In this document: positions 27,500 to 54,501 of the stretch, in pieces
Numbering within the stretch: position 1 is the stretch's first letter
How the letters are laid out: each line of letters opens with the position of its first letter
Source: Christensenellaceae bacterium
GTDB lineage: Bacteria; Bacillota; Clostridia; Christensenellales; CAG-138
Assembly (NCBI GenBank): GCA_963667795.1
Contig: OY764017.1
Location: forward strand, 2,356,079 to 2,420,078
Direction of reading: 5' to 3'
DNA length: 64,000 nucleotides
Program-made: the position numbers and the translations under genes
The notes under the pieces: generated by a model
What the model was told of the DNA's origin: nothing
Seen by the model: the letters and a program-made list of their open reading frames with translations, nothing else
The model's database searches: none

Positions 27500-27717
27500 A
27501 TACAAATGCGCGAAAGCAGTTGCCGGGCAACAGCATATATAATACAAATGACTATATATAAATATTGCAGGATGACAAGTATTTTTGTTATGTATTATAA
27601 TTATACGTAATTATACATTTTCTTGAATGCCGATAGGTAAAAACAGCATGTTGACGGCGGACTGGTATGACCGAGAATTCGGCAGGCCGGGCGACGCGAC
27701 CGAAGGAGGTTGAGTAC

Positions 27718-29616
27718 GTGTCTAAACTGAAAGATTTAATCCGGTACTTTGGCATGCCATTGGTCGTTGTCGCCATCATGATTACAACATTCATCGCATT
27801 CCGAACGCAAATCGCCTCCGAAATTCAGCAGGGAACGTACCAGATATTGCGGGAGTCATCACTTCAGCAAAAAAACGATGTTGTGAAATATCTAACCATG
27901 GTGGTTCGGAGAGCTGAAATCGTTACGGAATACAACAAAAACACCGGTAAAATTACATTGACGGAGACGCTGAAGACTGAACTTTCCGATAGCGACGTGA
28001 GCGAGGATTCAAGCGTTCGCGTAGGGTATGCTGATATGCAGGGCCGTGTCCTGTATGGCGATACAGACGTAATCGACGTTTCGCAAAAAGAGTGGTTTTG
28101 CTCTGGCTTAAAGGGGAAAAGTGATATTTCATTGTACCCATCTACGGTCAACGGCGGGCGTGACGATGTTTTGATCTCCGTTCCCGCATTTTTGGACGAT
28201 ACCGTAAGCGGCGTCCTGTTTGCAATTCTGCCAAACCACACGGTTTCCAACCTGATTGCGACGACCGCATATGAAGGCAAAGCGGTATCTGGCGTTTGTG
28301 ACACGGAAGGAAATTTAATCTTTACAGAACGGGATTTTGAGTTTGGATATCGTCTGGAAAATGTTTTTAGCCTGATTCAGGATGATTCTTTGGAAAACAG
28401 TTTTACACAGACTTGGTTAAAGCAGGCTATGCGTAACTCGGAAGAGAAAGATTTTTATTTTTACTACGAAGGGGAACGGTACTACACGGTTATCCAGCCT
28501 ATCGGCATTAGGGATTGGTATGTGTTTTCAACTGTCGACGGAACAACGGCCGACACGATCCAACGGCACGTAAGCACGTATGTTTCCTCAATGTTTTTGA
28601 TTGTATTTGCAGTCGGCATTGCAATGATTCTCGAAGCGTTTTTGCACGAAAGAACAACGGTAAAGCGGCTGGAACAAGATAAAGAACTGCTTCGCCAAAG
28701 CAGCGCGCGATATGCTTTGATCAATCGTCTGTCAAACGAAGTGCTCTTCACGGTCAATATGGAGAATGGCAATATTGATTTTAACGACAACTTCGAAACG
28801 ATGTTCGGCTTTTCGCCACCGGAATGCTCCATCGACAACCCGGAGTCGTACACCCAACTGGTGGTTGAAAGTGACCGGCCGCAGTTTATGCGGTTTGTCG
28901 AGCGCATGCTGTCCGGCGCAGCGGAAGCGCAAGAAGAGTTGCGCATGATCAATGCTCGCGGCGTAAGCCGATGGAAGCATCTGGAGATCTATTCGGTTTT
29001 TGACAGTGAAGGACGATCAACAGAAGCCGTGGGCAAAATATCAGATATCCATCGGCAGAAACAGTCGTTGCAGCGCCTTAAGAAGCAAGCGGACAGCGAT
29101 TCTTTGACTGGGCTGCTCAATCGATCCGCAATGGAGCGCTACACGCGGGAGTTTCTTGACGGAGAAGGAAAAGAAACGAAGCATGCATTTTTTATACTGG
29201 ATTTTGATAACTTTAAACAGGTGAACGACACGCTGGGCCATGCAGAAGGCGATCAGATGCTTGTTGCGTTTGCATACGCCGCCAAGCGTTTGTTCCGTAC
29301 GGGAGATCTCATTGCGCGAATCGGCGGGGACGAGTATACGATGCTTATGAAAACGATCGATTCGGATGAAAGCGCGCTTGAAAAAGCCGAACAGATGCGC
29401 AGGGCGATGGGGCGAGTGAGCGCAGAGTTTAAGTTCAATGTGACCGTCAGTATCGGAATTGCGATGTTTGATCGGGATGGTAAAACGTTTGAGGAGCTGT
29501 ACAAAGCCGCGGACGCAGCTCTCTATAACGTCAAGAAATCCGGAAAAGACGATTGCGTATTTTGTAGCGCTGCGGATATAATAACGAAACGGGATAAAAA
29601 CGATACGGAGGATTAA
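27718..29616 (+). CDS. Sensor diguanylate cyclase (N-terminal TM + Cache-like periplasmic domain, PAS, GGDEF)
   Basis: The GTG at 27718 is preceded by ggagg; an alternative ATG lies at 27667. The GGDEF domain runs 'DSLTGLLNR..FILDFDNFKQVND..GH..GD', with the active-site variant 'RIGGDEY' and the I-site 'RTGD' five residues upstream. Confidence 0.85.
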   Translation: MSKLKDLIRYFGMPLVVVAIMITTFIAFRTQIASEIQQGTYQILRESSLQQKNDVVKYLTMVVRRAEIVTEYNKNTGKITLTETLKTELSDSDVSEDSSVRVGYADMQGRVLYGDTDVIDVSQKEWFCSGLKGKSDISLYPSTVNGGRDDVLISVPAFLDDTVSGVLFAILPNHTVSNLIATTAYEGKAVSGVCDTEGNLIFTERDFEFGYRLENVFSLIQDDSLENSFTQTWLKQAMRNSEEKDFYFYYEGERYYTVIQPIGIRDWYVFSTVDGTTADTIQRHVSTYVSSMFLIVFAVGIAMILEAFLHERTTVKRLEQDKELLRQSSARYALINRLSNEVLFTVNMENGNIDFNDNFETMFGFSPPECSIDNPESYTQLVVESDRPQFMRFVERMLSGAAEAQEELRMINARGVSRWKHLEIYSVFDSEGRSTEAVGKISDIHRQKQSLQRLKKQADSDSLTGLLNRSAMERYTREFLDGEGKETKHAFFILDFDNFKQVNDTLGHAEGDQMLVAFAYAAKRLFRTGDLIARIGGDEYTMLMKTIDSDESALEKAEQMRRAMGRVSAEFKFNVTVSIGIAMFDRDGKTFEELYKAADAALYNVKKSGKDDCVFCSAADIITKRDKNDTED

Positions 29617-39136: not shown

Positions 39137-39288
39137 GCAAGGTGCACGATGCGATCGATTGTGTTCAATATTGTTTTTTGCGAGTGCAATACGCTTAGAA
39201 AAGCATGAAAAAATTACGATGTAACAGAAAATTCCAATGAATGATGCATCTTTTTTGTGAGCGCGTTATGTTTCAATGTAACATTTTG

Positions 39289-39318
39289 TTGCAAAGTTGT
39301 AATTTTCAGCGGTATAAT
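39289..39318 (+). promoter_or_regulatory. Sigma-70 promoter TTGCAA-18-TATAAT, about 220 nt upstream of the SARP-like regulator
   Basis: Read directly from the sequence. It lies in a 450-bp AT-rich intergenic region. Confidence 0.5.
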
Positions 39319-39539: not shown

Positions 39540-40772
39540 ATGCCGGAAGCAAAGATTAAGATTAAGATGTTTGGCAGTTTTGAGATTGTCGTAAAGGGAA
39601 ATGTGGTGCTACCGCAGTTGCGTCAGGCAAAAAAGACCTGTCAACTTTTGGAATATCTGATTCTAAAGAAAGACCGGCCGGTTCCGCATGAAGAACTGTT
39701 GGAAATGCTATGGTCGGACAAGGAAAATCGAAATCCTGCCACGGCCCTCCGAACGCTGCTGCATCGTTACCGTGCGTTGGTCGATCAGAGCGGGTTACCG
39801 GAACTTTCAAATTCTATCCTGACGGCGCGGGGTGCATACCAATGGAACCCGGACCTTGACTGTGAAATCGACGTATTTGAGTTCGAACGACTCTGTCAGG
39901 AGGCGAGAACGCCCGGCATGAGCAGCCGTGACAGCATCGAACGGTATATGCGCATGCTTGAGCTCTATACGGGACCGCTTTTGACCAACTCTGCCGAGGA
40001 GATGTGGGTCGTTCCGAAGAGCGTATATTATCATGACTTGTTTTTGGAAAGCGTATTCACGATGCTCGACCTGCTAAAGTCCGAAGAGGATTACGATATG
40101 ATCGTTCAGGTCTGCCGCAAGGCGATGGATGTGGATATGTTCGACGAGAGACTTCATTTGGAACTTATGATGGCGCTGGTCAAAACCGGTAAAAAACGCG
40201 AAGCGCTTTCACAGTATTATTTTGCGACTGACTTGCAATACAAACAGCTTGGCATTCAGCCGTCCGGTGAAATCCGCGCGGTTTATAAGCACATCGTGCA
40301 GGCGGACCAGGAGATGGAAGCCGACATCGAAAAAGTACAGAACGTGCTTGAAGAGGAGTCCGAAAGTTATGGTGCCTTTGTCTGCCAATATGAGATATTT
40401 AAGGAAATCTATCAGCTGCAACGGCGCATGCTGGAACGGTATAACGGAACGATGTTCCTTGCGCTTTTGACCGTCAGCAACACGTCTGAACAGCAATTTG
40501 AGAACATGGTGCTGGATAACATCATGAAACGGCTTTTGAATGTGGCGCAGACAAACCTTCGCCGCGGGGACACGATATCCCGCTATAGCGTTATGCAATA
40601 CGTCGTGCTCCTGCCGTCGGTTACATATGAGACGGGCCGCGTGGTCATGGATCGTATCAAAAAGGCATTTTACAACGAATATGTAAAATCCTCCGTTGTG
40701 TTGACCTATAAATTGCGTCCGCTTTGTATCAATAAATATGACACGACCGGGCAAAAGCAAATCAACGAATAA
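39540..40772 (+). CDS. SARP/BTAD-type transcriptional regulator (OmpR-like winged helix + BTAD) with a C-terminal degenerate GGDEF domain
   Basis: The start is at MPEAKIKIKMFGSFEIV. The winged helix is 'LLEYLILKKDRPVPHEELLEMLW'. The BTAD region runs 'FEFERL..YMRMLELYTGPLL....LHLELMMALVKTGKKREALSQY'. The C-terminal 'LRRGDTISRYSVMQYVVLLPS' aligns with 'FRTGDLIARIGGDEYTMLMKT' of the in-window cyclase. Confidence 0.75.
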   Translation: MPEAKIKIKMFGSFEIVVKGNVVLPQLRQAKKTCQLLEYLILKKDRPVPHEELLEMLWSDKENRNPATALRTLLHRYRALVDQSGLPELSNSILTARGAYQWNPDLDCEIDVFEFERLCQEARTPGMSSRDSIERYMRMLELYTGPLLTNSAEEMWVVPKSVYYHDLFLESVFTMLDLLKSEEDYDMIVQVCRKAMDVDMFDERLHLELMMALVKTGKKREALSQYYFATDLQYKQLGIQPSGEIRAVYKHIVQADQEMEADIEKVQNVLEEESESYGAFVCQYEIFKEIYQLQRRMLERYNGTMFLALLTVSNTSEQQFENMVLDNIMKRLLNVAQTNLRRGDTISRYSVMQYVVLLPSVTYETGRVVMDRIKKAFYNEYVKSSVVLTYKLRPLCINKYDTTGQKQINE

Positions 40773-40798
40773 CATTCAGTTTTCAGCCCGTGAAATAA

Positions 40799-40828
40799 TA
40801 AAGGAAGCTTAATCAGCTTCCTTTTTTA
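40799..40828 (+). terminator. Rho-independent terminator after the regulator gene
   Basis: aaggaagct-taatc-agcttcctt is followed by tttt. Confidence 0.85.
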
Positions 40829-40883
40829 CCGACATGCGGTGCGAAAGCACTTATAGAAAGAATCATCGCATGGCCAGGTTCGA

Positions 40884-40912
40884 TTGACACCATACTCCTT
40901 GCATGATAGAAT
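40884..40912 (+). promoter_or_regulatory. Near-consensus sigma-70 promoter TTGACA-17-(TGa)TAGAAT for the glycan operon
   Basis: Read directly from the sequence. It lies ~100 nt upstream of the ATG at 41016. Confidence 0.6.
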
Positions 40913-41015
40913 TTTTGCTATAAGCGGGGAAAGAGGCCCGTTTGCTTTGTATAGGCAAAAGCCTGGGAAATACCCTGTATCGAAAGCGGTTTTGCCGCAT
41001 CGAAGAAGGAAGAAC

Positions 41016-42854
41016 ATGTATATTCGCATCAAGCGATTTCTGGACATTGCGTTGTCTCTGATAGGCGGCATAGTCCTTTCACCGTTGCTGCTTGCTTTGA
41101 CGCTCGCGGTCAAGCTCGATTCCAAGGGCCCCGTGCTGTTTAGACAAAAGCGCGTGGGCAAGGGAAAGGCATTTTTTTCGATTTTAAAATTTCGCACAAT
41201 GCGTGTAGATACGCCCTGCGACGTCCCAACGCACCAGCTTTGTGATCCGGAGCGGTGGATTACGCGCGTTGGGCGGTTTTTGCGTAAAACGAGTTTGGAT
41301 GAACTGCCGCAGCTTTGGAATATTTTTGTTGGCGACATGTCTCTTGTCGGCCCACGGCCAGCGCTTTGGAATCAGGACGATTTGATTGCACAGCGGGATC
41401 AATATACCGGCCGGTATGGACTCACACCGAACGACGTTCGACCGGGCCTGACGGGGTGGGCACAAATCAACGGGCGAGACGAGTTGCCGATTTGTGTCAA
41501 AGCGAAGTTTGACGGCGAATACGTAGAGCGAATGGGATTTGGTATGGATTGCCGGTGTCTTTTCGGCACTATTGGCAGCGTGCTGCATCATAAAGGTGTT
41601 CGCGAGGGGGTTGCGGAAGTGAAGGAAGATTTGCGGGTAACGTTGGTGTCCGCTTATTTTGCGCCGGAAATCACGCCGATTACGCATCTGTATGCCGATC
41701 TTGCGGAGGACTTGTGCCGGTACGGCGCGTGCGTAACGGTTGTTACCAACTTGGCCAACCGTGGTCTGGACGAGAAAACCCGCGAAGCATATCTGCAAAA
41801 AACGGATGAAACCGTTGCGGAAGGCTATCGTGTTTTGCGCGTTGGAACAAAATCACGCGAGGGCACAAATTTCTTTCGCCGCGGACTACACTTTTTAGTC
41901 AATACACGCGCGCTGCTCAAGGCGGCCAGAAAAACCAAAGCGGACGTATACCTTCTTGGCAGCATGCCGCCGTTCCTCGGTCTTGTAGGCGCGAAACTCA
42001 GCCGCAAAGCACGCACGGTTTATATCCTTCAGGACATCTTTCCGGACAGCATGGTCGCCATGGGAAAATTTACCGAATGGCATCCGGTTGTACGTGCAAG
42101 CCGCCGGATGGAGCAACATACATACAAGAAGAACTCGGCGTTCGTCACCCTGTCTGAAGATATGAAACGGACGCTGACGGCGAGAGGCATTCCGGAAAAG
42201 AAGATTGCAGTTATCCCAAACTGGGCGGACACGGAAGCGGTTAAGCCGATCAGCCGGGAAGACAATCCGCTATTTGACGAATTGAAATTGCCACGGGATC
42301 ATTTCTATGCGGTCTATGCCGGAACCCTTGGTGTTTTACAGGAGCCGGACACGCTGTTGGACGCGGCGAAACTGCTCAAGCCGAAGAAAGATATCCGTGT
42401 GATCATCTTCGGCGGCGGTGCGTTGTATGAACATGTGCACACACGCATCGAAAACGAAAAGATCAGTAATGTTTTGCTCTATCCGCTACTGCCGGAAGAA
42501 CGGGTTGCGGAGGTATATTCGCTTGGTGATGCCGCGCTGGTTCCGCTGAAAGCGGGGACGACGCGCTTTGCAATGCCTTCTAAGACATGGACGGCGCTTG
42601 CGGCCGGGAGGCCGGTAATCGTCTGTGTAGACGCGGGTAGCGAGTGGGCGCGTTCGATCGAGCGGGAAAGCTATGGCATTTGTGTGCATCCCGGCGAACC
42701 AAGGGAGATGGCGGATGCAATTTTGCGATTGCATGCCTGCGCCTTGCCGCTGAACGAGCTCGGCGAACGTGCGCGCAGCTATGTGTGCGAACATGCGTCC
42801 CGTGAATCGGCGACGCGCGCCTATTATGATTGGTTGACAAAGAAATCGTTATAA
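41016..42854 (+). CDS. Fusion of a small monotopic phosphoglycosyl transferase (Bac_transf/PglC-WbaP C-terminal type) with a GT4 (WcaI-like) glycosyltransferase
   Basis: The N-terminal ~200 aa include 'KRFLDIALSLIGGIVLSPLLL..LFRQKRVG..FSILKFRTM' and 'DELPQLWNIFVGDMSLVGPRP'. From ~41631 a GT-B GT4 domain begins with 'LRVTLVSAYFAPE' and contains 'GDAALVPL'. No stop codon separates the two parts. Confidence 0.8.
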   Translation: MYIRIKRFLDIALSLIGGIVLSPLLLALTLAVKLDSKGPVLFRQKRVGKGKAFFSILKFRTMRVDTPCDVPTHQLCDPERWITRVGRFLRKTSLDELPQLWNIFVGDMSLVGPRPALWNQDDLIAQRDQYTGRYGLTPNDVRPGLTGWAQINGRDELPICVKAKFDGEYVERMGFGMDCRCLFGTIGSVLHHKGVREGVAEVKEDLRVTLVSAYFAPEITPITHLYADLAEDLCRYGACVTVVTNLANRGLDEKTREAYLQKTDETVAEGYRVLRVGTKSREGTNFFRRGLHFLVNTRALLKAARKTKADVYLLGSMPPFLGLVGAKLSRKARTVYILQDIFPDSMVAMGKFTEWHPVVRASRRMEQHTYKKNSAFVTLSEDMKRTLTARGIPEKKIAVIPNWADTEAVKPISREDNPLFDELKLPRDHFYAVYAGTLGVLQEPDTLLDAAKLLKPKKDIRVIIFGGGALYEHVHTRIENEKISNVLLYPLLPEERVAEVYSLGDAALVPLKAGTTRFAMPSKTWTALAAGRPVIVCVDAGSEWARSIERESYGICVHPGEPREMADAILRLHACALPLNELGERARSYVCEHASRESATRAYYDWLTKKSL

Positions 42855-42875
42855 GATGGAAAATGAGAGAAACGG

Positions 42876-43916
42876 ATGGAACGGGGGCGACACGATTTGT
42901 TTGATGGAAAAACACTGCTGATCACAGGTGGCACGGGAAGCTTTGGCAACGCCGTGCTGGAGCGGTTTCTGGATTCCGGCATTCAGGAGATTCGGATTTT
43001 TTCGCGGGACGAAAAAAAGCAGGACGATATGCGACGGCATTATCAAAGCGATAAAATCCGGTATTTTATCGGAGACGTACGCGACATCACGTCCGTGCAG
43101 AATGCAATTTATAATGTCGACTATGTGTTTCATGCGGCGGCTCTGAAACAGGTGCCGTCCTGTGAGTTTTTTCCGCTGGAAGCGGTCAAGACCAACGTAT
43201 TTGGTACGGACAATGTGCTGACTGCCGCAATTGACGCAGGCGTTTCGAGGGTGATTTGCCTTTCAACCGATAAGGCGGCCTATCCGATCAACGCCATGGG
43301 TACGAGCAAAGCCATGATGGAAAAGGTCGTGGTTGCAAAATCGCGTACCGTCTCGCCGGAAAAGACGATGATCAGCTGTACACGGTACGGGAACGTCATG
43401 TGCTCGCGGGGGAGCGTGATTCCACTGTTTATAGAGCAAATCAAGGCAGGCGCACCGCTGACGGTAACGAATCTTGATATGACGCGCTTTATTATGAGCC
43501 TGGATGAAGCGGTGGACCTTGTAGTGTATACGTTTGAACATGGCAATACCGGCGACATTATGGTGCAGAAGGCTCCGGCTTGTACGCTCAGCGTGCTGGC
43601 GCAGGCCGTGAAGGAATTGTTTGATGCGGACAATCCGATTCGTACAATCGGAATTCGGCACGGTGAAAAGATGTATGAAACGCTGTTGACCAATGAAGAA
43701 TGTGCGCGTGCCGTCGATATGGGCGGTTATTTCCGTGTTCCCGCGGACTCACGCGACTTGAATTATGAGAAATATTTTGAGCAGGGCAACGCAGAGCGCA
43801 GCAGGCTTACCGAGTTCAACTCCAACAATACAACGTTGCTCAACGTTGAAGAAGTGAAGGAGCGGTTGCTGAAATTGTCGTATATTCGCGCGGAGCTGGC
43901 CGGGTGGAAGCAATAA
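42876..43916 (+). CDS. fnlA: UDP-N-acetylglucosamine 4,6-dehydratase/5-epimerase (CapE/FnlA/WbjB)
   Basis: 'LLITGGTGSFGNAVLERFLD..IRIFSRDEKKQDDMR', 'HAAALKQVPSCEFFP.EAVKTN' and 'STDKAAYPINAMGTSKAMMEK' are nearly collinear with S. aureus CapE as recalled. Confidence 0.9.
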   Translation: MERGRHDLFDGKTLLITGGTGSFGNAVLERFLDSGIQEIRIFSRDEKKQDDMRRHYQSDKIRYFIGDVRDITSVQNAIYNVDYVFHAAALKQVPSCEFFPLEAVKTNVFGTDNVLTAAIDAGVSRVICLSTDKAAYPINAMGTSKAMMEKVVVAKSRTVSPEKTMISCTRYGNVMCSRGSVIPLFIEQIKAGAPLTVTNLDMTRFIMSLDEAVDLVVYTFEHGNTGDIMVQKAPACTLSVLAQAVKELFDADNPIRTIGIRHGEKMYETLLTNEECARAVDMGGYFRVPADSRDLNYEKYFEQGNAERSRLTEFNSNNTTLLNVEEVKERLLKLSYIRAELAGWKQ

Positions 43917-43995
43917 CAGCTTAAAGCGAATCCATGCCGATACCGAAAGAATGAGTTGACACGCAGGACTGGACATAGGAGAGGACACGGTTAGC

Positions 43996-45114
43996 ATGAA
44001 GATATTGATCACGGGCGCCAGCGGGTTCATCGGCAAGAATCTAATTTCCACACTGAGAACCTATGGATATACCGATATCCTGTATTACGATGCGGACACT
44101 CCTGCGGAACGGCTTGAGCGTTACTGCGCAGAGTGTGAATTCGTCTATCATCTTGCGGGGGTCAATCGTCCCAAGACACAGGATGAATTTATGCAGGGTA
44201 ATTTCGGGTTTACCGACACGCTGCTTCGCACGCTGATCAAATATAGAAACAACTGCCCGATTATGTTTGCAAGCTCCACACAGGCCGCCTTACCGAATCT
44301 TTACGGCAGAAGCAAAAAAGCAGGTGAAGAACTGTTCTTTCAGTATCAGCGCGAGACAGAAGCGAAAGTCTATGTATTCCGATTTCCAAACGTATTTGGT
44401 AAATGGTCGAAACCAAACTACAACAGCGCGATTGCGACGTTTTGCTATAACATTTCACATGATTTACCGATTACGGTCAACGACCCGTCGACCGAGCTGC
44501 ACCTTGCATACATCGACGATGTTGTCGAAGCGCTTATTGCGCTGCTGGATGACGAAACGACGATGGAAGGCCCGTATTGTGTCGTTCCTATGATACATTC
44601 AGCAAAGCTTGGCGATATTGCCGATCGGATTCGTTCGTTCCGAAAGATACGGAAAGAAAATGAACTGCCGGATATGAGTGCACCGCTGACACGCAAGCTC
44701 TATGCAACGTATTTGAGTTTTTTGCCGACCATGGAATTTGCGTATCCACTGACGATGCATGAAGACGACCGCGGGAGTTTTACGGAGTTTTTGCGCTCCG
44801 ACAGCGGTGGACAGGTTTCCGTCAACATCAGCAAACCGGGCATTGTAAAAGGCAACCACTGGCACCACACGAAGACCGAGAAGTTTCTCGTAGTCTACGG
44901 GTCAGGCGTGATTCGTTTTCGCAGTCCTGATGTGGAGGAAGTTTTGGAATACCATGTCAGCGGAAAGAAGCTGGTCGTGGTAGACATCCCGGTCGGGTAT
45001 GCGCACAGCATTGAAAATACGGGTAAATCAGATATGGTGACGCTGATGTGGGCGAGCGAATGCTTCGATCCTGAACATCCGGACACCATTGCAACGGAGG
45101 TTCAACGAGCATGA
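43996..45114 (+). CDS. fnlB: CapF/FnlB/WbjC reductase-epimerase (SDR N-domain + cupin C-domain)
   Basis: 'MKILITGASGFIGKNL', 'HLAGVNRP', 'FGKWSKPNYNSAIATFCYNI' and 'DDRGSFTEF..GQVSVNISKPGIVKGNHWHHTKTEKFLVV' are present. 372 aa. Confidence 0.9.
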   Translation: MKILITGASGFIGKNLISTLRTYGYTDILYYDADTPAERLERYCAECEFVYHLAGVNRPKTQDEFMQGNFGFTDTLLRTLIKYRNNCPIMFASSTQAALPNLYGRSKKAGEELFFQYQRETEAKVYVFRFPNVFGKWSKPNYNSAIATFCYNISHDLPITVNDPSTELHLAYIDDVVEALIALLDDETTMEGPYCVVPMIHSAKLGDIADRIRSFRKIRKENELPDMSAPLTRKLYATYLSFLPTMEFAYPLTMHEDDRGSFTEFLRSDSGGQVSVNISKPGIVKGNHWHHTKTEKFLVVYGSGVIRFRSPDVEEVLEYHVSGKKLVVVDIPVGYAHSIENTGKSDMVTLMWASECFDPEHPDTIATEVQRA

Positions 45115-46235
45115 CGAAATTAAAGCTCATGACGGTGCTTGGCACACGACCGGAAATCATCCGCCTTTCGGCGGTGATTCCATGTGCGGACAAATACTTC
45201 CACCATATTCTGGTTCATACCGGACAGAACTACGATTATACGCTCAATAAAATTTTCTTTGACGATCTTGGTCTGCGTGCGCCGGACTACTACCTGGAAA
45301 GCGTCGGCAAGGACCTTGGTGAAACCATGGGCAATATCATTGCCAAGTCCTATGAAGTCATGCAGCGTGAAAAACCGGACGCACTTTTGGTGCTTGGAGA
45401 CACCAACTCCGCGCTGGCGGCGATTTCAGCAAAGCGGCTGAAGATACCGATTTTCCATATGGAGGCGGGCAACCGCTGCTGGGACTGGAACGTCCCCGAA
45501 ATGGTCAATCGCGTCATCGTAGACCGCATCAGCGACGTAAACATGCCGTACACGGAGCATTCCCGCCGATACCTGCTTTCGGAAGGATACGACGGAAAGT
45601 TTCTCTTCGTCACCGGATCGCCCATGCGTGAGGTGCTTGAAAAACAGAAGAACAAGATCCTCCAAAGCGACGTTCTTTCCCGTCTTGGATTGGAAGAGAA
45701 AAAATACATCCTACTTTCGGCACATCGTGAAGAAAACATTGACGACGAGGGACACTTTTTGTCACTCATGCGCGCGATCAACGATATTGCCGAGACCTAC
45801 GATATGCCGGTCGTTTATTCCACACACCCGCGAAGCAGGAAGTTCATCGAACAGCGCGCGTTTCGTTTTCACCCGAACGTCCGCTCGCTGGAACCGTTTG
45901 GCTTTTTCGACTATAACCGTTTGCAGCTTTCTTCGTACTGTGTGCTTTCCGACAGCGGGACGCTTTCGGAAGAAAGCGCCATGCTGGACTTTCCAGCCGT
46001 ACTGATCCGAACGTCCACCGAACGCCCGGAAGCGCTGGATGCGGGAACGATCGTGCTTGGCGGTGTAACGCGCAAGAGTGTCGAACAGGCGATGGCGCTG
46101 GCCGTCTCCATGTTTGAAAACCATGAACCGACCGCCATGCCGGACGACTATCAGGATGTCAATGTCAGCGTAAAGGTCGTCAAGATTATTGAAAGCTACG
46201 CAGACATCGTTATGCGCACAACCTGGGGCAGGTAA
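45111..46235 (+). CDS. fnlC: UDP-N-acetylglucosamine 2-epimerase, non-hydrolysing (CapG/FnlC/WbjD)
   Basis: 'VLGTRPEIIRLS', 'HTGQNYDY', 'LGDTNS' and 'HMEAGNRC' are present. 374 aa. It overlaps fnlB by 4 nt. Confidence 0.85.
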   Translation: MTKLKLMTVLGTRPEIIRLSAVIPCADKYFHHILVHTGQNYDYTLNKIFFDDLGLRAPDYYLESVGKDLGETMGNIIAKSYEVMQREKPDALLVLGDTNSALAAISAKRLKIPIFHMEAGNRCWDWNVPEMVNRVIVDRISDVNMPYTEHSRRYLLSEGYDGKFLFVTGSPMREVLEKQKNKILQSDVLSRLGLEEKKYILLSAHREENIDDEGHFLSLMRAINDIAETYDMPVVYSTHPRSRKFIEQRAFRFHPNVRSLEPFGFFDYNRLQLSSYCVLSDSGTLSEESAMLDFPAVLIRTSTERPEALDAGTIVLGGVTRKSVEQAMALAVSMFENHEPTAMPDDYQDVNVSVKVVKIIESYADIVMRTTWGR

Positions 46236-47455
46236 TGAGCACAGGCGTGTTTAGAAATGAGCCTCCAAGGGTTTTATATGGATCGACACTGATGAGCGCG
46301 GAGACGTTTTCCGCGCTGTTTTCGCGTGCGCAGGTACGTCCAAGTCTTGCCGCGCAAAAATATCATGGCCTTATGACAAGAGGATTGGCACACAATGGTG
46401 TTTCCATAACCGCGCTGAGCGTGCCGCCGGTTTCGCGGCAGACGAGCCAAAGGCGGTTTGTACGCGTCCATGATGAAAAAACAAACGGTGTGGCATTTCA
46501 TTATCTGCCGGTGGTTGTCATTCCAGGCCTTAAGCATGCTTTGGTTGCGGCAAGCGCGTTTTTGTATACACTGGTACACTTGGGACGATCGGATTATGCT
46601 GTTTGCGACGGATTGAATATAGCGTTAAGCATGGGGATTCGTGCCGCCGCAAAGTTGAAGCGACGTCCATGCATTGCGATTGTAACCGACGTGCCGGACA
46701 TCCTTGCCGGAGGACAAACACAAACTTCGAAAACGAACACGCATCTTCTGGCACGGTTTGACGGATATATTTTGCTAACCGAGGCGATGAACACGCTGGT
46801 TAACCCGTTCGGGAAACCGTTCTTGGTTGCGGAGGGGCAAGTTGACGCAGCCATGTCGGATGCTGCGAATGATTTGAGCGGCAAGTGCTCCGAAAAAATC
46901 TGTCTATACGCGGGCATGCTACACGAAAAATACGGCGTGGTCAAATTGGTGGAAGCGTTTCGAAAAGTGAACGATGAGGCGGCACGCCTGGTTCTTTATG
47001 GCGACGGCGATGCGACGGAACGAATCCGCGAAATTGCAAACGAAGATGAGCGGATCGAATACCGCGGCATGGCCGATAACCGAACCGTCGTGCAGGAAGA
47101 ATTGAAAGCGACGCTGCTGATCAATCCTCGGCCTTCGGACGAAGACTTCACAGCTTATTCGTTTCCGTCGAAAAATCTGGAGTACATGGTTTCGGGAACG
47201 CCTGTTCTAACGACGAAACTGCCGGGGATGCCGCGTGAATATGACCAATATGCATATCTGTTCGACGACGAATCGGTGGATGGAATGGCAAAAACACTGA
47301 ACGAAGTGCTCAGGCTTTCGCTTGAGGAACTGCATTCGATGGGGAGTCGAGCAAAAGCATTTGTATTAAGCAACAAATCCAATACCGCGCAGGCGCGGCG
47401 TGTACTCGAATTTATGAAGACGCTTGATCGGAACATAACAACACAAGGAAAGTGA
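46235..47455 (+). CDS. Glycosyltransferase family 4 (GT-B)
   Basis: The C-terminal half contains 'YAGMLHEKYGVVKLVEAF..LVLYGDGD' and 'FPSKNLEYMVSGTPVLTT' (E-x7-E type). Confidence 0.75.
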   Translation: MSTGVFRNEPPRVLYGSTLMSAETFSALFSRAQVRPSLAAQKYHGLMTRGLAHNGVSITALSVPPVSRQTSQRRFVRVHDEKTNGVAFHYLPVVVIPGLKHALVAASAFLYTLVHLGRSDYAVCDGLNIALSMGIRAAAKLKRRPCIAIVTDVPDILAGGQTQTSKTNTHLLARFDGYILLTEAMNTLVNPFGKPFLVAEGQVDAAMSDAANDLSGKCSEKICLYAGMLHEKYGVVKLVEAFRKVNDEAARLVLYGDGDATERIREIANEDERIEYRGMADNRTVVQEELKATLLINPRPSDEDFTAYSFPSKNLEYMVSGTPVLTTKLPGMPREYDQYAYLFDDESVDGMAKTLNEVLRLSLEELHSMGSRAKAFVLSNKSNTAQARRVLEFMKTLDRNITTQGK

Positions 47456-47459
47456 TAGG

Positions 47460-48518
47460 ATGGCTGCAAACGAATGTACAGCCCGACAACCAAATATACC
47501 GGAAGGTCCGCAGGCGCGTGTTTTATTCTTTGGCGGTGCGAGTGTATCCATAGAAACCGATATACCCTCGACCGATGTTGAACTGAAGCGGTATGCTAAC
47601 GAGCACGATTATCGTTGTGGAGCCCTGATCTCCGGCACCGGAACGCCCGACTGGCTCAAGGAGCAGGATATCGGCATCGTTTCGTTGCCCGGCATGACGC
47701 AACAGGAACTTTCCATCGTTCGGGAGCAATTGAGCCCATCGGTAGGAATCGGCATTGGTGAGAATGCACCGCTGGCAAACCGACCTGCGGTGATCGCGGT
47801 CAATGGTGTTCGCCTGGGCGTTTTGTCTTTAAACGAAACGACATGGCGCAGCGACGCATACGCCGTGGAAGCGGATATTGAGGATTTGTCCGTCTATGAT
47901 CATGTTCGCATGTTGCTTCCGCAATGCGATCATGTTATTGTATTTTGCCGAACAGGACTGCCGGGGTTTGAAATGCCGCTTCCAGAATGGCGCGAGCGAT
48001 ACCGGCACCTGATAGAATCGGGTGCTAGCATTGTGCTGGGGGTTCGCTCGGACGAGCCGCTAGGTTGGGAAGAGTATGGGCACGGCGTGGCGTTTTACGG
48101 CATCGGCACGTTAACAAGAGAGTCGCTTGCAGTATCGGTGACCTTTGAACGAAACGGCCGATTCACATACGAGTCACGACTGCTGGAAGCAATTGACGGT
48201 AAGATCAGCTTTTCAGCCGATGATACGAAAAAGGAAGCGATCAACGCAAAGAATGCACTGTTGGTTGACGAAGCACAGTATTTGGACGAAACTGAGCGCG
48301 CTTGTGTCGCTTTTTACCAAGCCGAAGGCTATACGGCGCTACTGAACGTGTGCGCAAAACGCGGCGCGCTTTCCGGCTTGCTGCGCAAAAAGCAAGCCGA
48401 CAATCGTCGAATCGACGAAGCGATGCTGAAAGATTTACTTGTAGGAACCTCGCGTAGGTATGCTGTACTGCGGGCACTGAACGCAACCGAACGGACGAAA
48501 GACGGGGACACGAAATGA
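47460..48518 (+). CDS. CapA/PGA_cap-like (metallophosphatase-fold) paralog with all metal-ligand motifs replaced
   Basis: It is collinear with the bona fide CapA-family protein at 59471-60658, but the motifs differ. GDLM becomes FGGA, ANNH becomes LPGM, PHWG becomes CRTG, GSHPH becomes GVRSD, and MGNF becomes IGTL. Confidence 0.55.
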   Translation: MAANECTARQPNIPEGPQARVLFFGGASVSIETDIPSTDVELKRYANEHDYRCGALISGTGTPDWLKEQDIGIVSLPGMTQQELSIVREQLSPSVGIGIGENAPLANRPAVIAVNGVRLGVLSLNETTWRSDAYAVEADIEDLSVYDHVRMLLPQCDHVIVFCRTGLPGFEMPLPEWRERYRHLIESGASIVLGVRSDEPLGWEEYGHGVAFYGIGTLTRESLAVSVTFERNGRFTYESRLLEAIDGKISFSADDTKKEAINAKNALLVDEAQYLDETERACVAFYQAEGYTALLNVCAKRGALSGLLRKKQADNRRIDEAMLKDLLVGTSRRYAVLRALNATERTKDGDTK

Positions 48519-49786
48519 AGATTTTATGGGTGGTCGCACCGATGCTGCCGCAGATTGCGAAACTGACAGGCAACGCCCGGCAATATGCGGGTGGTTGGCT
48601 GGTGTCCGTTTGCGACGGCCTGCTTTCAAACGAAGCAAACGAGCTGTTCATTTGTTATCTTTCGAACGGACGTAAACAAAGCGGAAAGAGCGGCAGGCTC
48701 TCCTATGAATCATATGGCCAGGACACGTTGCGGTATTCAGTTCGGACGCAGCAACAATTTGAAGAAATCCTCCGGCGTGAACAGCCGGACGTCATCCATG
48801 TTTGGGGGACGGAGTATCCGCTTACGTTGGCGATGACCAACGCCTGTGAACAGACGGGGATGCTTGATCGCATGGTCGTCAGCATTCAAGGGCTGTGTTC
48901 CGTTTATGCATGGCATTTTGCCGCAGGGTTGCCGCAGAAGGTGCTGCGAGGGGTGACCTTCCGGGATTTACTCCGGCGGGACAACATCTACAGGCAGCGA
49001 GAGAAATATGTCGTTCGCGGCGCGTTTGAAACGGCCGCACTGCAAAAAGCGGAGCATGTAATTGGCCGGACGGACTGGGACCGTACTTGCGTGCGTCAGA
49101 TCAATTCGGAAGCGTCATACCATTTTTGTAACGAGACTCTACGGGACACGTTTTATGAAGGAAAATGGAGCGCAGACGGCTGTAAACGGCACACGATCTT
49201 CGTTTCTCAGGGAAACTATCCGATCAAGGGGTTGCATAAGGCTCTTGCGGCGTTGGTGTTTTTAAAGAGAGACTTTCAGGATGTTCGACTGGTTACAACC
49301 GGTGCAGACCCGCGTGACGGTTCTTTGAAAAAGCGGATGCGGCGGTCAAACTATGCAAGATATCTGGCAAAGATTATTCGGGATTGGGGTTTGGACGATC
49401 ACGTTGCATTTGTCGGGATGCTGTCGGCAGAGCAGATGAAACAGCAGTATCTGGATGCACATGTTGCGCTGACGCCGTCGTCCATTGAAAACAGCTCAAA
49501 CTCCATCGGCGAAGCGATGTTGCTTGGTGTGCCCGTTGTGGCGAGCTATGTCGGCGGCACGCCGGACTTGCTGGACCATGGTGTGGAAGGATTCTTGTAT
49601 CCGTTCGACGCGCCGTACATGATGGCCGAATACATACGCCGTATTTTTTCAGACGACGCGCTTGCAATAAAACTTGGAGAGAATGGACGCGTCCGTGCAC
49701 AGAAACGGCACGATGCGGCACGTAATTTATCCGAATTAAACGAAATTTACGCACGCCTTGCAAGCGGAACTGAAAAGAAAGGCTGA
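48515..49786 (+). CDS. Glycosyltransferase family 4
   Basis: 'MKILWVV', 'GGW', 'ENSSNSIGEAMLLGVPVVASYVGG' and 'GVEGFLY' form GT4 motifs. 423 aa. Confidence 0.8.
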   Translation: MKILWVVAPMLPQIAKLTGNARQYAGGWLVSVCDGLLSNEANELFICYLSNGRKQSGKSGRLSYESYGQDTLRYSVRTQQQFEEILRREQPDVIHVWGTEYPLTLAMTNACEQTGMLDRMVVSIQGLCSVYAWHFAAGLPQKVLRGVTFRDLLRRDNIYRQREKYVVRGAFETAALQKAEHVIGRTDWDRTCVRQINSEASYHFCNETLRDTFYEGKWSADGCKRHTIFVSQGNYPIKGLHKALAALVFLKRDFQDVRLVTTGADPRDGSLKKRMRRSNYARYLAKIIRDWGLDDHVAFVGMLSAEQMKQQYLDAHVALTPSSIENSSNSIGEAMLLGVPVVASYVGGTPDLLDHGVEGFLYPFDAPYMMAEYIRRIFSDDALAIKLGENGRVRAQKRHDAARNLSELNEIYARLASGTEKKG

Positions 49787-49787
49787 T

Positions 49788-51125
49788 ATGAAACTTTTCG
49801 GCATGGACAACCCGATACGAAAGCGGTTTGCCGCAAACACAGGCTGGCTGATTGCGCAGAGCGTTTTTCAGTATGTCCTTTCGGCGGTCATCGGCATCAT
49901 TGCCGCGCGCTTTCTCGGCCCGGCGAATTATGGCATTCTTGGTTATGGCGTTTCGCTGATGGCCATGTTTCAGGCGTTTTGCACGCTTGGGCTGAATGAC
50001 ATACAGATCACGAATATGATCGAAACACCGGACGACATCGGCGGTATTATTGGAACAGCGCTTGTTATGCGTCTGACCTCATCGACGCTGTCCATCCTGG
50101 GCATCGCTGCTATAGCGATGATCTCCCGTCCCGGCGAAAAGCTGCTGCTGATCGTGACCGTGCTGCAAAGCCTCCAACTGATTCTCCAGGCATTCGATGT
50201 GTTTCGGCTTTGGTTCCAAATGAAGTTGATGAGCAAATATACCGCCATCGGCTCCATCATCGGCAATATCGCCTGCAGCGTGTGGCGCATCGTGCTCCTG
50301 ATTCAGGGTGCGTCGGTGGAGTGGTTCGCATTGACCAGCGTTATACAGATGTTTACGAATTACCTGTTCGTCGCACCGCTGTTTTTTGCAAAGGCAAAGA
50401 TGCGGCTTTGGGTTTCGTTTTCCATCGGAAAGCGGCTGCTGAAACGAAGCTGGCATTTTATCTTGTCGGGCTTGACCAACGCGGCTTCCGCACACTTCAG
50501 CAAGCTCTACCTTGGCGTCGCACTGGGTGACGCGATGCTGGGTTATTATAACGCCGCGTATACAATAGCAACTATGTGGCTGTTTGTTCCACTGGCAATT
50601 GTGGATTCGGCGTTTCCCGTGCTGCTGCAAACCAAGAAAAACAACCCGGAAGCATTCCGCCCACGGTACCAGCTGATGCTGATGGCGGTACTGGGAATCG
50701 GCGTCTGTGCAGGCATCGGCCTGAGCATTCTTGCACCTTGGATTATCAATCTGCTGTACGGTCCGGACTATGCGCCTGGCGCAGATGTTCTGCGTATCGT
50801 TGCCTGGATTGGGATTCTCTCTAATGTCGGTTCCGCGCGGAACATCTGGATTCAGGCGGAAAGCAAACAGAGCTCTGTGAAATACATTTCGTTGCTCTCA
50901 GCAATTGCAAGCATTGTGCTGAGTGTTATACTGATTCCAATCTTCGGCCTCAATGGTGCGGCAATCGCCTGTGTCGTGAGCTTCCTTGTTTCATCGTTTG
51001 TGGCAACGTGGGCGCTGAAGAGTACACGACCGTTTGTATCACTGTATCTTGGATCGTTTGGCACGCTCTATCAGGTTGGGCGAAACTTCCTGCGGAACAG
51101 AAAAGCTGGCGGTGATAACAAATGA
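49788..51125 (+). CDS. wzx: Oligosaccharide flippase Wzx (MOP/polysaccharide biosynthesis protein family)
   Basis: The start at MKLFGMD lies 2 nt after the upstream stop. About 445 aa with about 12 TM segments. 'NTGWLIAQSVFQYVLSAVIGIIAARFLGP.NYG' is present. Confidence 0.8.
   Translation: MKLFGMDNPIRKRFAANTGWLIAQSVFQYVLSAVIGIIAARFLGPANYGILGYGVSLMAMFQAFCTLGLNDIQITNMIETPDDIGGIIGTALVMRLTSSTLSILGIAAIAMISRPGEKLLLIVTVLQSLQLILQAFDVFRLWFQMKLMSKYTAIGSIIGNIACSVWRIVLLIQGASVEWFALTSVIQMFTNYLFVAPLFFAKAKMRLWVSFSIGKRLLKRSWHFILSGLTNAASAHFSKLYLGVALGDAMLGYYNAAYTIATMWLFVPLAIVDSAFPVLLQTKKNNPEAFRPRYQLMLMAVLGIGVCAGIGLSILAPWIINLLYGPDYAPGADVLRIVAWIGILSNVGSARNIWIQAESKQSSVKYISLLSAIASIVLSVILIPIFGLNGAAIACVVSFLVSSFVATWALKSTRPFVSLYLGSFGTLYQVGRNFLRNRKAGGDNK
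50327..51075 (+). repeat. Direct repeat copy 1 (749 bp, inside wzx)
   Basis: It is identical to 53682-54430 (offset 3355, no indels) except for A/G differences at 50362/53717 and 50400/53755. I verified this by comparing the sequence and three reading frames of ORF translations. Confidence 0.9.
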
Positions 51126-52154
51126 AACGATATAAAGTACTGATCATTCAGCAAACGATTCCCAGCTATCGGGTTCCGATTTTCAACTTGTTGGCGCAGA
51201 AAACGGATCTAACGGTTGTATACGAATATGGAGCAAGGCCATCGGATGCAGCATTTTGCATGAAACAAATGCAGACATTCCACATCACTCGCGTTGGAAA
51301 GGTTATCGCGACGGTTTGAAAAAACTGACGAACGGGTACGACGTCGTGATCAATTCTTACGATACACCGCTGTATGCGGTACGTAAGCTGGTTCGCCTAA
51401 AAAACATGGCTTTGGATTAATCCACTGGGGTATTGGCGTATCGGCCAGCTATTCGTCCCATTTTGATGCCGGGTATATAAACAGACCGTTTTACGATAAC
51501 ATTCTTAGGGAATCTGACGCCTGTTTGTTTTACAGCGTGTATCCAATTGAGAAATATTCGAATGCAGGCTGGTCGCGCGAGAAGCTTTTCACCGCACCGA
51601 ATACTGTCCGTGTTGTACGGGAAGAAACGCCGCAAAAAAAGGACACCATCTTGTTTTTAGGGTCACTCTATCCGCAAAAAGGATCTGATGAGTTGCTGGA
51701 ACAATATTTTCGGGCGTACAGCGTGGATTCAAATGTACCGAAACTGATTTTCATTGGCGACGGCAGCGAACGAGCTCGAATTGAAAGCTGGATATCCCAA
51801 AAGAATCTGAAAGATCGGATTTCGCTGACCGGGGCGATTTACGATGATGCCGTACTCGGCAAATATTTTTCAAAAGCGATCGTGTGCGTTTCACCAAAAC
51901 AGGCAGGGTTGACGGTTTTGAAGAGCATGGGGTGCGGCGTAGCGTATGTGACGAGAAAAGATGTGATTACCGGTGGCGAAATTTTTAACATTCAGGATGG
52001 GATAAACGGCGTTTTATACGAACAACAAGACGAACTGGGCGATATCATTCTTGATTTGATCAAAAACCCGGACAAATACCATCAAATGGGACGAAGAGCA
52101 AGGGAGCATTACGATCAAAATAGAAGCCGTCTGATATGGTGGATGGATTTATGA
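51122..52154 (+). pseudogene. Glycosyltransferase family 4 gene disrupted by at least 2 frameshifts
   Basis: The N-terminus 'MKRYKVLIIQQTIPSYRVPIFNLL' (51122-51319) reads in one frame and the middle 'GYRDGLKKLTNGYDVVI..' in a second. A third frame carries 'GLIHWGIGVS..' through the C-terminal GT4 domain (51525-52154: 'ILFLGSLYPQKG', 'FIGDGSER', 'GGEIF'). The second shift coincides with an A6 run at ~51403-51408, where A7 would restore the frame. Confidence 0.7.
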
Positions 52155-52203
52155 ACGCAATTGACTACGCCGCCCGAATATCCAAGGAACGGAGCGATGG
52201 ACG

Positions 52204-53319
52204 ATGAAAAAAGTAATGGTTATTTTCGGCACTCGGCCGGAAGCGATAAAAATGGGTCCTGTTGTGCTGGCACTAAAAGCAAGCGGCGACATTGAAACGG
52301 TCGTCTGCGTGACTGGGCAGCATAAGGAGATGCTTCAGCAAGTTCTTGATTGTTTTGCTATCGAACCGGATTATGATCTTGCCGTCATGCGTGAACGGCA
52401 GACGTTGTTTGACATCACGCGCAACATTCTGGCTTCCATCGGCGAAGTTTTACAGAAAGAAAATCCGGATATTGTGCTTGTCCATGGCGACACAACAACG
52501 ACGTTTGCTTCCGCGCTCGCAGCATTTTACCTGAAGATTCCGGTTGGACATGTGGAAGCCGGTCTCCGAACGCATGATCTGTACGCGCCGTTTCCGGAAG
52601 AATTTAACCGAAAAGCTACGTCGATCGTTGCGGCGCTTAACTTTGCGCCGACCGAATTAGCCAAACAGAATCTTCGGAGCGAAGGATATGATGAAGCAAG
52701 TATCTTTGTTACGGGAAATACGGCGATCGACGCCATGAAGACAACCGTGCAAGAAACGTTTGAATCTCCCCTGACGCATTGGCTTGGCGACAGCCGGCTG
52801 ATTCTTTTAACCGCCCATAGGCGAGAGAACATTGGTGAGCCGCTGAAAAATATCTTTCGTGCGGTTCGCAGGATCGTAGAGGAAACACCTGACGTTAAGG
52901 TGATCTATCCTGTGCACATGAACCCCGCAGTGCGCGAATCGGCAAACGAAATTCTCTCCGGCAACGACAATATTCGGCTCATCGAGCCGCAGGACGTGCT
53001 GACATTCCACAACCTGATGGCGCGCGCGTATTTGATTATGACCGACAGCGGCGGCATTCAGGAAGAAGCTCCTTCGCTGGGGAAACCGGTTTTAGTGCTG
53101 CGGGATGTAACGGAACGACCGGAAGGCATCGAAGTAGGCACGCTTAAGTTGACCGGGGCCGATGAACAGACGGTTTATCACGAAGCAATGCGCTTGTTAA
53201 CCGACAAGGATGAATATATGCGTATGAGTACGGCAAAAAACCCGTATGGCGACGGATTGGCATCCGAACGCATTGTCAAAGCAATATTGGAATGGAATGG
53301 TGGGCAAACAACGCTGTAA
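52204..53319 (+). CDS. wecB: UDP-N-acetylglucosamine 2-epimerase, non-hydrolysing (WecB/MnaA)
   Basis: 'VIFGTRPEAIKMGPV', 'VTGQHKEML', 'VHGDTTTTFA', 'HVEAGLRT' and 'TDSGGIQEEAPSLGKPVLVLR' are present. 371 aa. Confidence 0.9.
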   Translation: MKKVMVIFGTRPEAIKMGPVVLALKASGDIETVVCVTGQHKEMLQQVLDCFAIEPDYDLAVMRERQTLFDITRNILASIGEVLQKENPDIVLVHGDTTTTFASALAAFYLKIPVGHVEAGLRTHDLYAPFPEEFNRKATSIVAALNFAPTELAKQNLRSEGYDEASIFVTGNTAIDAMKTTVQETFESPLTHWLGDSRLILLTAHRRENIGEPLKNIFRAVRRIVEETPDVKVIYPVHMNPAVRESANEILSGNDNIRLIEPQDVLTFHNLMARAYLIMTDSGGIQEEAPSLGKPVLVLRDVTERPEGIEVGTLKLTGADEQTVYHEAMRLLTDKDEYMRMSTAKNPYGDGLASERIVKAILEWNGGQTTL

Positions 53320-53416
53320 ACAAAGCGAACGGACTTGTGTCCGGCCTCTGGAATTATTATAATAAGTAAGCGCTTTCAATCGTAGCGTGTTCAATGCGGA
53401 AGAGACGACGGAGCGG

Positions 53417-54471: not shown

Positions 54472-54501
54472 AAGAAACCGAGAATATAAGAGGCTCAACA
54501 A

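Follow-up and report, generated by a model that had tools for sequence, protein, structure and literature searches.

What can a small transcription regulator sense, and what can it control, if the DNA-binding part of the protein is followed by what looks like the remains of a cyclase and the gene itself lies directly upstream of a long run of polysaccharide genes? The gene in question (39540..40772, plus strand) is found in a 64,000-nucleotide (nt) stretch of contig OY764017.1 of a Christensenellaceae bacterium; this whole stretch is referred to here as the window. Its product probably represents an uncharacterised kind of cyclic di-GMP (c-di-GMP)-sensing switch for cell-surface structures that is common in Clostridia. 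An earlier reading of the window's letters (the original prediction) had proposed a c-di-GMP-responsive activator of the adjacent glycan genes. The sensing part of that proposal has been strengthened by what follows; the choice of target has not.

Domain architecture and the predicted I-site

The open reading frame (ORF) at this place extends from 39486 or 39540 to 40772 on the plus strand. The ATG at 39540 is the start that is kept by orthologues; it is preceded by a ribosome-binding site, AGGAAGG, and yields a product of 410 amino acids (aa). The source annotation calls proteins of this family merely 'BTAD domain-containing putative transcriptional regulator'. The gene and the parts of its product are listed here with the evidence for each (coordinates are those of the window; AF2 stands for AlphaFold2, and I-site for the inhibitory site of GGDEF domains):

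39540..40772, +, regulator gene, 410 aa plus stop (ORF list, conserved start and ribosome-binding site, Pfam, 234 homologues)
39540..39845, +, OmpR-type winged-helix DNA-binding domain, aa 1-102 (PF00486, Foldseek match to AfsR, conservation)
39867..40352, +, BTAD helical-repeat domain, aa 110-271 (PF03704, helices 111-271 of the AF2 model, matches to AfsR and EmbR)
40395..40733, +, degenerate GGDEF domain, C-terminally shortened, aa 286-398 (profile against PDB, PF00990 in relatives, Foldseek, secondary structure)
40425..40439, +, R296-x-x-x-R300 at the end of helix alpha1, candidate secondary I-site (position only)
40560..40571, +, RRGD, aa 341-344, predicted primary I-site RxxD with R341 and D344 (gap-free alignment to PleD R359/D362, 3ign and 6zxm)
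40587..40601, +, SVMQY, aa 350-354, in place of the catalytic GG(D/E)EF (register from the profile and PleD alignments)
40653..40655, +, R372, counterpart of PleD R390 and third residue of the predicted primary I-site (gap-free alignment, also to the 3ign arginine)

By the criteria of domain content and fold, the regulator is a member of the SARP family. Trans_reg_C (PF00486) scores 29.8 bits against a Pfam cut-off of 26.2, and BTAD (PF03704) scores 67.1 bits against 22.1 (E = 2.8e-18, aa 110-252). The AF2 model of the whole protein has a mean predicted local distance difference test score (pLDDT) of 82.5, and its N-terminal part resembles AfsR (Foldseek E = 5.9e-11, target-normalised TM-score 0.67-0.70) and EmbR (E = 1.4e-9). 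AfsR is also matched when a profile is searched against PDB (E = 8e-16). The winged helix and BTAD region that had been read from the letters are accordingly both above their Pfam cut-offs and folded like those of AfsR and EmbR.

The domain that follows is not assigned by the usual means. In the regulator alone, GGDEF (PF00990) reaches 17.4 bits over aa 326-376, and also 20.7 bits, with a cut-off of 23.8; several diguanylate cyclase models of NCBIfam match weakly over aa 298-384. Since the score of the single protein is below threshold, independent support is needed from a profile, from relatives and from the fold. A profile of 22 diverse C-terminal domains of the family matches GGDEF structures only when searched against PDB (3ign best, with E = 1.5e-8, then DgcR 6zxm with E = 6e-8, SadC, TM1788 and DosC). 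PF00990 is matched by 19 of these 22 domains and no other family is matched. The isolated domain is modelled by AF2 with a pLDDT of 86.6, and all of the top 50 Foldseek matches to the C-terminal part are GGDEF domains, with a query-normalised TM-score of about 0.7. (What this means for the search with GGDEF models that the original prediction had suggested is that it comes out below Pfam's threshold for the single protein, but points to GGDEF and nothing else for family profile and fold.) The position-by-position match to the diguanylate cyclase encoded elsewhere in the window, on which the first assignment was built, has the right register but is not significant as a pairwise comparison (BLASTP E = 0.11; hhalign over 32 columns, E = 0.001, probability 21%). 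Too weak to stand alone as evidence of GGDEF homology, it has been set aside here in favour of profile and fold.

The predicted fold runs through a helix (286-301), a strand (305-314), a helix (322-339), two strands (345-350 and 353-359), a helix (363-380) and a strand (386-395), after which the protein ends. The folded domain thus measures about 115 aa (286-398) and not the approximately 150 aa at first allotted to it. What is absent, according to the AF2 model and the alignment to PleD, is the canonical final helix and strand; the phosphate-binding residues K442 and R446 of PleD sit in the missing helix. (In length and at 13 numbered residues, the PleD sequence to which the last helix was compared matches the published numbering.) The active site is equally altered. 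Among 148 aligned sequences (147 cluster representatives and the window protein, with a median identity to the latter of 33%; all conservation figures refer to this set), none has GG at the pentapeptide, which instead reads S-x-x-Q-Y/F, with Q353 88% conserved. T311 occupies the position of the metal-binding aspartate (PleD D327) in the profile alignment, and the region of PleD N335 is variable and gapped among family sequences. With GG(D/E)EF, the metal aspartate and the last helix gone, the C-terminal domain is not a cyclase, as had been anticipated from SVMQY; by its sequence, it is homologous to GGDEF domains and catalytically dead.

Retention of the predicted I-site accompanies these losses. 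In GGDEF proteins, the I-site is made up of RxxD and R390 (in PleD numbering), together with R313 from helix alpha1 of an adjacent GGDEF domain, so that c-di-GMP dimers cross-link two domains (PMC7288161). Hidden Markov model alignments run without gaps from RxxD through helix alpha3 and equate R341, D344 and R372 of the regulator with R359, D362 and R390 of PleD; the three residues line up equally with 3ign and 6zxm, both of them structures in c-di-GMP-bound form. Conservation of 95% or more is reached at just 11 of the 410 positions: L70, R76, R78, Y100, D111, Y143, C282, F287, R341, D344 and R372. L70, R76 and R78 are in the recognition helix (R76 and R78 at 99-100%), D111 and Y143 are in BTAD, and five of the eleven belong to the C-terminal domain. 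R341, D344 and R372 are conserved at 98%, 99% and 98%, respectively, the complete triad is present in 141 of the 148 sequences, and the probability that three positions named beforehand would all fall among the 11 most conserved by chance is 1.4e-5. The spacing is also fixed: RxxD is followed after five residues by the pentapeptide in 148 of 148 sequences, exactly as in the original prediction, and the pentapeptide after 17 residues by R372 in 141 of 148.

R296 and R300, at the end of helix alpha1, are conserved at 93% and 95% and are located 41-45 residues before R341. A secondary I-site, RxxR, has been proposed for YdaK at 42-45 residues upstream of its RxxD (PMC5422440). The I-site that had been called intact on account of RxxD therefore gains a third arginine, R372, and two candidate arginines from alpha1. 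Conservation of the I-site in a domain from which the catalytic features have disappeared is the outcome expected if the I-site is the working part of that domain, and the alignments make a role of the C-terminal domain as c-di-GMP receptor a well supported prediction.

The family is large. There are 234 close homologues, all of about 400-420 aa; species-representative genomes hold 372 stretches with family members, and clustering at 50% identity leaves at least 150 clusters, with full-length matches at E < 1e-92. The hosts are Christensenellaceae and other Clostridia, with Anaerobium acetethylicum and Anaerofustis among those that are cultured or named.

The regulator promoter and family-wide neighbours

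Across the family, the gene directly upstream of the regulator encodes a PilT-family ATPase (TIGR01420, 406.8 bits). This arrangement is found in about 62 of 79 distinct loci, down to 41% identity, and includes one locus of 94% identity (L012). The pilT gene closes a type IV pilus-like cluster that specifies a transglutaminase-like protein, a PilC/GspF-like protein, DUF4860, two small proteins and PilT, and the regulator follows; the cluster usually lies beside a gene for a giant Flg_new adhesin. In L007 and L008 the pilT stop and the regulator start are 2-11 nt apart (translational coupling). No PilB-type assembly ATPase is visible in the examined stretches of the cluster, which is an unusual pilus-like system. 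Examples of it occupy L013 (28-9903) and L007 and L008 (1-9998); the adhesin, with its Flg_new repeats, measures 1,000-2,700 aa and the two small proteins are unannotated.

A paralogue of the regulator in Christensenella, P0117 (47% identity), is abundant (on 451 contigs) and has a context unlike the one with pilT: in L009 and L010 (9200-12970), it is placed between a Crp-like cNMP (cyclic nucleoside monophosphate)-binding regulator and an HD_5/HD (HD-GYP-like) gene, and its locus adjoins a MucBP/Flg_new adhesin.

In the window, the regulator gene is delimited by two signals:

39219..39318, +, regulator promoter (promoter scan, alignment to the promoters of pilus operons in 7 other species)
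40796..40828, +, intrinsic terminator after the regulator gene (14-nt inverted repeat, 93% complementary, followed by a T-run)

The promoter comprises two ATGTAACA boxes (39219-39226 and 39276-39283), a -35 element TTGCAA (39289-39294), TGTAAT (39298-39303) and a -10 element TATAAT (39313-39318). Two of the three copies of ATGTAACA in the entire window fall in this promoter, and its TGTAAY copies are spaced 21 nt from start to start. Aligned with promoters of pilus-like operons, it shares with them the motif GTAACA(A/T)TTTGTTGCA, N13-14, GC.GTATAATC. In at least 25 species, GTAAC boxes precede the -10 element by 35 and about 90 nt, and most relatives have a further box at about 129 nt; the distances in the window are 35 and 92 nt. 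More distant members have GT(A/T)AC boxes beside TTGCAA-type -35 elements, likewise before pilus clusters. The pilus operon of relatives has its first ATG only 7-8 nt past the -10 element (for example at L013 4840-4974), which suggests a leaderless mRNA; at the corresponding place in the window (region 39205-39335), the counterpart of this ATG reads ATA.

On this alignment, the regulator promoter is the orthologue, or relic, of the pilus-like operon promoter. The simplest history would have the regulator begin as the last gene of an autoregulated pilus operon, with subsequent loss, in this lineage, of the genes between promoter and regulator. (No remnant of a pilus gene is found by tblastn in the 64-kb window.) An isolated unit with its own promoter at 39289-39318 and terminator at 40799-40828 had been proposed at the outset. 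Both signals are matched and conserved across species, and the terminator hairpin and T-run are present at this place in every aligned orthologue, but the promoter has turned out to be that of a pilus operon. (Promoter-like and terminator-like matches as such are no more numerous in the window than in shuffled sequence.)

GTAAC-like half-sites are typical of OmpR-type winged helices such as those of CpxR, OmpR and ArcA. The GTAAC boxes are for that reason taken to be the best candidate sites for the regulator, an assignment in which we have low confidence. They adjoin the -35 element both in the regulator promoter and in the promoters of the pilus operons; SARPs bind direct repeats that overlap this element or lie next to it.

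The predicted -10 element is separated from the regulator start by about 215 nt (39331-39539), conserved in the closest relatives only. An Rfam scan of the whole window gives no match at gathering scores and noise alone at E <= 1, and a riboswitch or known RNA was accordingly rejected for this leader as well as for the leader of the glycan operon.

The proposed switch and its alternatives

The reading that we favour, with moderate confidence, is that the regulator is a c-di-GMP-sensing SARP in which cross-linking of the I-site domain by its ligand controls promoters with GTAAC boxes: its own and, ancestrally, that of the pilus operon. An intercalated c-di-GMP dimer would bind to the primary I-site (R341, D344 and R372); the remaining contact would probably come from helix alpha1 of a second protomer, through R300 or R296, or else from the protein's own BTAD. 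The cross-link would alter oligomerisation or domain arrangement, and the altered arrangement would change winged-helix binding to the repeated GTAAC boxes and the recruitment of RNA polymerase. Ancestrally, and throughout the family, the promoter acted on would be that of the pilus-like operon, which ends with the regulator gene. The promoter in the window now drives the regulator alone, which makes it likely that the regulator acts on its own expression. The polysaccharide operon next to it may be a further target, but a secondary one. The computations establish the architecture, the homology, the loss of the catalytic site, the conserved I-site, the synteny and the promoter orthology; we infer from them that c-di-GMP is bound, that the protein dimerises and that it binds to the GTAAC boxes, as well as the direction in which it regulates. 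A genuine diguanylate cyclase specified by the window shows that the organism has c-di-GMP signalling.

Several points weigh against this proposal. With regard to the ligand, the regulator by itself misses Pfam's GGDEF threshold; the domain is shortened, and GGDEF domains of such a reduced kind are not known to bind c-di-GMP; the choice of c-di-GMP comes entirely from conservation; and the mapping of R300 (or R296) to PleD R313 is by position only, which makes it a candidate. Nor are genes of cyclic-dinucleotide metabolism a regular neighbour: they are found near few members (L008, L039, L060, L062 and L066; an HD_5 gene in L009), and an enrichment of GGDEF, EAL or HD-GYP genes beside family members was discarded when a rough estimate came out at about chance for a 20-kb region. 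With regard to the target, the pilus operon is absent from the window. The GTAAC boxes could belong to another regulator; their spacings of 55 and 39 nt are not those of 11- or 22-nt SARP repeats, and box C and the -35 element form a near-palindrome, GTAACAAtTTGTTgC, that fits a symmetric dimer rather than tandem SARP protomers.

The alternatives concern either the target or the function of the C-terminal domain. The neighbouring features that enter into them are:

40884..40912, +, near-consensus sigma-A promoter of the glycan operon (TTGACA, 17 nt, TG-extended TAGAAT; 11 of 12 matches)
40923..40942, +, conserved hairpin at the start of the glycan operon leader, part of the neighbourhood and not of the regulator (RNAalifold, 6-bp stem)
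41016..55674, +, polysaccharide biosynthesis locus (Pfam)
27667..29616, +, diguanylate cyclase, dCache-PAS-GGDEF (PF00990 E = 2.2e-37, motifs RTGD and GGDEY)

The alternative that survives best, though we consider it unlikely, is the one originally put forward: a c-di-GMP-gated activator that acts at 40884-40912 to turn on the 15-kb glycan operon downstream. Its attraction is one of position. The glycan locus begins at most about 450 nt downstream of the regulator in about 32 of about 43 orthologous loci of at least 74% identity, despite variation of its content and of the upstream flank, and is still downstream at 65% identity (in the 65% orthologue of L004 and L005, 11484-13386, with an extra gene and a sortase gene in between). 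There is also Firmicutes precedent for control of exopolysaccharide by c-di-GMP through degenerate GGDEF receptors, and the evidence for the I-site applies equally to this reading. On the other hand, no glycan locus lies downstream in family members of 41-60% identity, and the downstream neighbours of distant members are heterogeneous, with no common family. Adjacency to glycan genes is thus conserved only among close (Christensenellaceae) orthologues. The suggested survey for the same architecture beside glycan loci accordingly succeeds at short range, but the neighbour that is shared family-wide is the pilT operon.

The glycan promoter itself speaks most directly to this question. It is as near to consensus as had been stated, and together with about 45 nt after it (window 40876-40965; L011-L061) it is almost invariant in about 25 species, in which the rest of the spacer cannot be aligned. 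Across these species there is no conservation upstream of the few bases that flank the -35 element, and at this promoter neither direct repeats of the SARP type nor the GTAAC boxes of the regulator promoter are found. SARP-dependent promoters normally lack a good -35 element and carry repeats over it (ActII-ORF4, DnrI and AfsR are the familiar cases). A perfect -35 element, 17-nt spacing, a TG-extended -10 element and no upstream conservation are therefore not the anatomy of a SARP-dependent promoter; they are, to judge from the sequence, that of a strong activator-independent promoter with a structured leader. Substitutions in the leader hairpin are mostly one-sided and compatible with G-U pairing, with one double change, and this retention of G-U pairs points to an element that acts as RNA, which would place control at the leader; the hairpin may be a 5' stabiliser or the target of an antitermination factor. 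Promoter anatomy, pilT synteny and the relic promoter together weigh against the regulator as activator of the adjacent operon.

A second alternative, less probable again, leaves the C-terminal domain without any nucleotide ligand and makes it a module for dimerisation or for a partner, for example by docking to an active cyclase or to PilT. GGDEF domains do dimerise, and degenerate copies serve as interaction modules, which an E. coli GGDEF/EAL interactome study is said to have found. The 2-11 nt coupling to pilT in L007 and L008 would suit a protein partner, and the conserved C282, F287 and Q353 fall outside the I-site. However, the three polar residues that the domain conserves best are precisely the I-site triad that contacts guanine and phosphate, at invariant spacing, while all other GGDEF signatures have drifted, and a pure interaction surface would not be expected to retain this triad in 141 of 148 diverged sequences.

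There is a slimmer chance that the pocket is I-site-like and reads another guanine nucleotide (pGpG, 3'3'-cGAMP, GTP or (p)ppGpp). Guanine is recognised generically by Arg and Asp, and degenerate GGDEF domains with other ligands exist, CC3396 binding GTP and YybT binding ATP (PMC7288161). These two proteins use the former active site, which in the regulator is destroyed and truncated; the combination of RxxD and Arg is so far known only for c-di-GMP, and the organism encodes a canonical cyclase. Finally, a functionless, decaying remnant at the end of a plain small SARP, which truncation and the sub-threshold Pfam score might suggest, is effectively refuted by the conservation of the domain: 150 or more clusters (50% identity) and 372 stretches from species-representative genomes keep it at full length, its AF2 model has a pLDDT of 86.6, and 5 of the 11 most conserved positions lie in it.

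The remainder of the neighbourhood can be described briefly. Upstream of the regulator is asnA (38038-39081), with a strong terminator; it is a neighbour in few lineages. The glycan locus encodes a priming transferase fused to GT4, FnlA/B/C-like enzymes, GT1s, Wzx and PGA_cap. Toward its 3' end, short ORFs at 51525-52154, 53427-53885 and 53686-54471 match partial families only (the C-terminal half of GT1, an N-terminal fragment of UDP-glucose dehydrogenase and the C-terminal part of a Wzx-type flippase), and look like pseudogene fragments or recombination scars. The locus is followed by ftsA-ftsZ; an FtsA/PilM_2 match at 55942-57141 was considered as a pilus gene and rejected, being ftsA itself beside ftsZ. 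In L004 and L005, the gene inserted between regulator and glycan locus is unannotated, with 304 aa in L005 and two ORFs of 202 and 101 aa in L004. The window cyclase has GGDEY in place of GGDEF and retains an RxxD of its own (RTGD); in L001, its gene is also found about 9 kb upstream of the regulator. At 22176-26243, a single ORF of 1,355 aa encodes the whole of a carbamoyl-phosphate synthase large chain and, at its C-terminal end, a diaminopimelate epimerase domain (aa 1233-1347); it is either a gene fusion or the result of a lost stop codon.

Comparison with known systems

The effectors of c-di-GMP are poorly known in Gram-positive anaerobes. Those known in Firmicutes are riboswitches, PilZ, MshEN and membrane GGDEF receptors. 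Neither a fusion of SARP/BTAD to GGDEF nor a c-di-GMP-sensing transcription factor whose sensor derives from GGDEF is described in the literature searched (full text), in keeping with the original remark that no SARP with this combination of output and input has been characterised. (CdeR of Dickeya was rejected as a precedent: it is a Ner-like protein without a GGDEF domain.)

If the family does bind c-di-GMP, it would represent a new wiring of this signal to transcription, with the I-site as sensor on a SARP, and would account for the control, in many Clostridia (abundant Christensenella among them), of type IV pili and giant adhesins, and perhaps of capsule or exopolysaccharide as well. The signature winged helix-turn-helix-BTAD, R-x-x-D, five residues, S-x-x-Q-Y/F, 17 residues, R would then annotate hundreds of genes. 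An allosteric feedback site would have been retained as a stand-alone putative receptor after the surrounding enzyme was pared away. A bolder version of the proposal goes further, and we advance it only tentatively, as something that we doubt more than we believe. In it, these SARP-GGDEF proteins are clostridial transcription factors that sense c-di-GMP and make up a large family so far overlooked, in which the I-site cross-link assembles SARP protomers on GTAAC boxes and switches on an autoregulated type IV pilus/adhesin operon, in coordination with the exopolysaccharide locus in Christensenellaceae. With them, an I-site domain of GGDEF origin would for the first time be shown to serve a transcription factor as its reader of c-di-GMP, and Firmicutes would have their first transcription factors that bind this signal.

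The closest counterparts of the C-terminal domain are PelD (P. aeruginosa), PopA (Caulobacter), PssE (Listeria) and YdaK (B. subtilis), which have in common with it a ruined GG(D/E)EF, RxxD five residues upstream, the alpha3 arginine and a link to surface polymers. PssE and YdaK are Firmicutes receptors of this degenerate-GGDEF I-site type: PssE binds c-di-GMP with a dissociation constant of 0.79 uM and two ligands per protein (PMC4125290), and YdaK, which also binds c-di-GMP (PMC5422440), shares with the regulator an arginine motif upstream of RxxD (by 42-45 residues in YdaK). All four differ from the regulator in being post-translational membrane or adaptor proteins that have a full-length GGDEF domain and no DNA-binding domain, and in that their binding of c-di-GMP is demonstrated, while that of the regulator is predicted from sequence.

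For the other half of the protein, the best matches in sequence and structure are AfsR and EmbR, which have the same core of winged helix and BTAD and an appended C-terminal sensor, NB-ARC and TPR in AfsR and FHA in EmbR. (PolY is reportedly a further SARP with an extra C-terminal sensor domain.) The regulator differs in that its appended domain is GGDEF-derived, its host is a Clostridium-class anaerobe and not an actinomycete, and its context is one of pilus, adhesin and glycan genes instead of antibiotic clusters.

In proposed function, namely c-di-GMP control of DNA binding or oligomerisation in a regulator of surface structures, the regulator resembles BldD, VpsT, FleQ, MrkH, Clp, BrlR and LtmA. 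None of these is a SARP and none has a GGDEF-derived I-site domain; we know of no member of this class that has been characterised in Firmicutes. The site itself is most like that of product inhibition in PleD and WspR, with the same residue set of RxxD, alpha3 arginine and alpha1 arginine (the last matched by position only). What the cross-link does in PleD and WspR is to shut down an enzyme; in the regulator, which contains none, it would itself be the signal to the DNA-binding domain.

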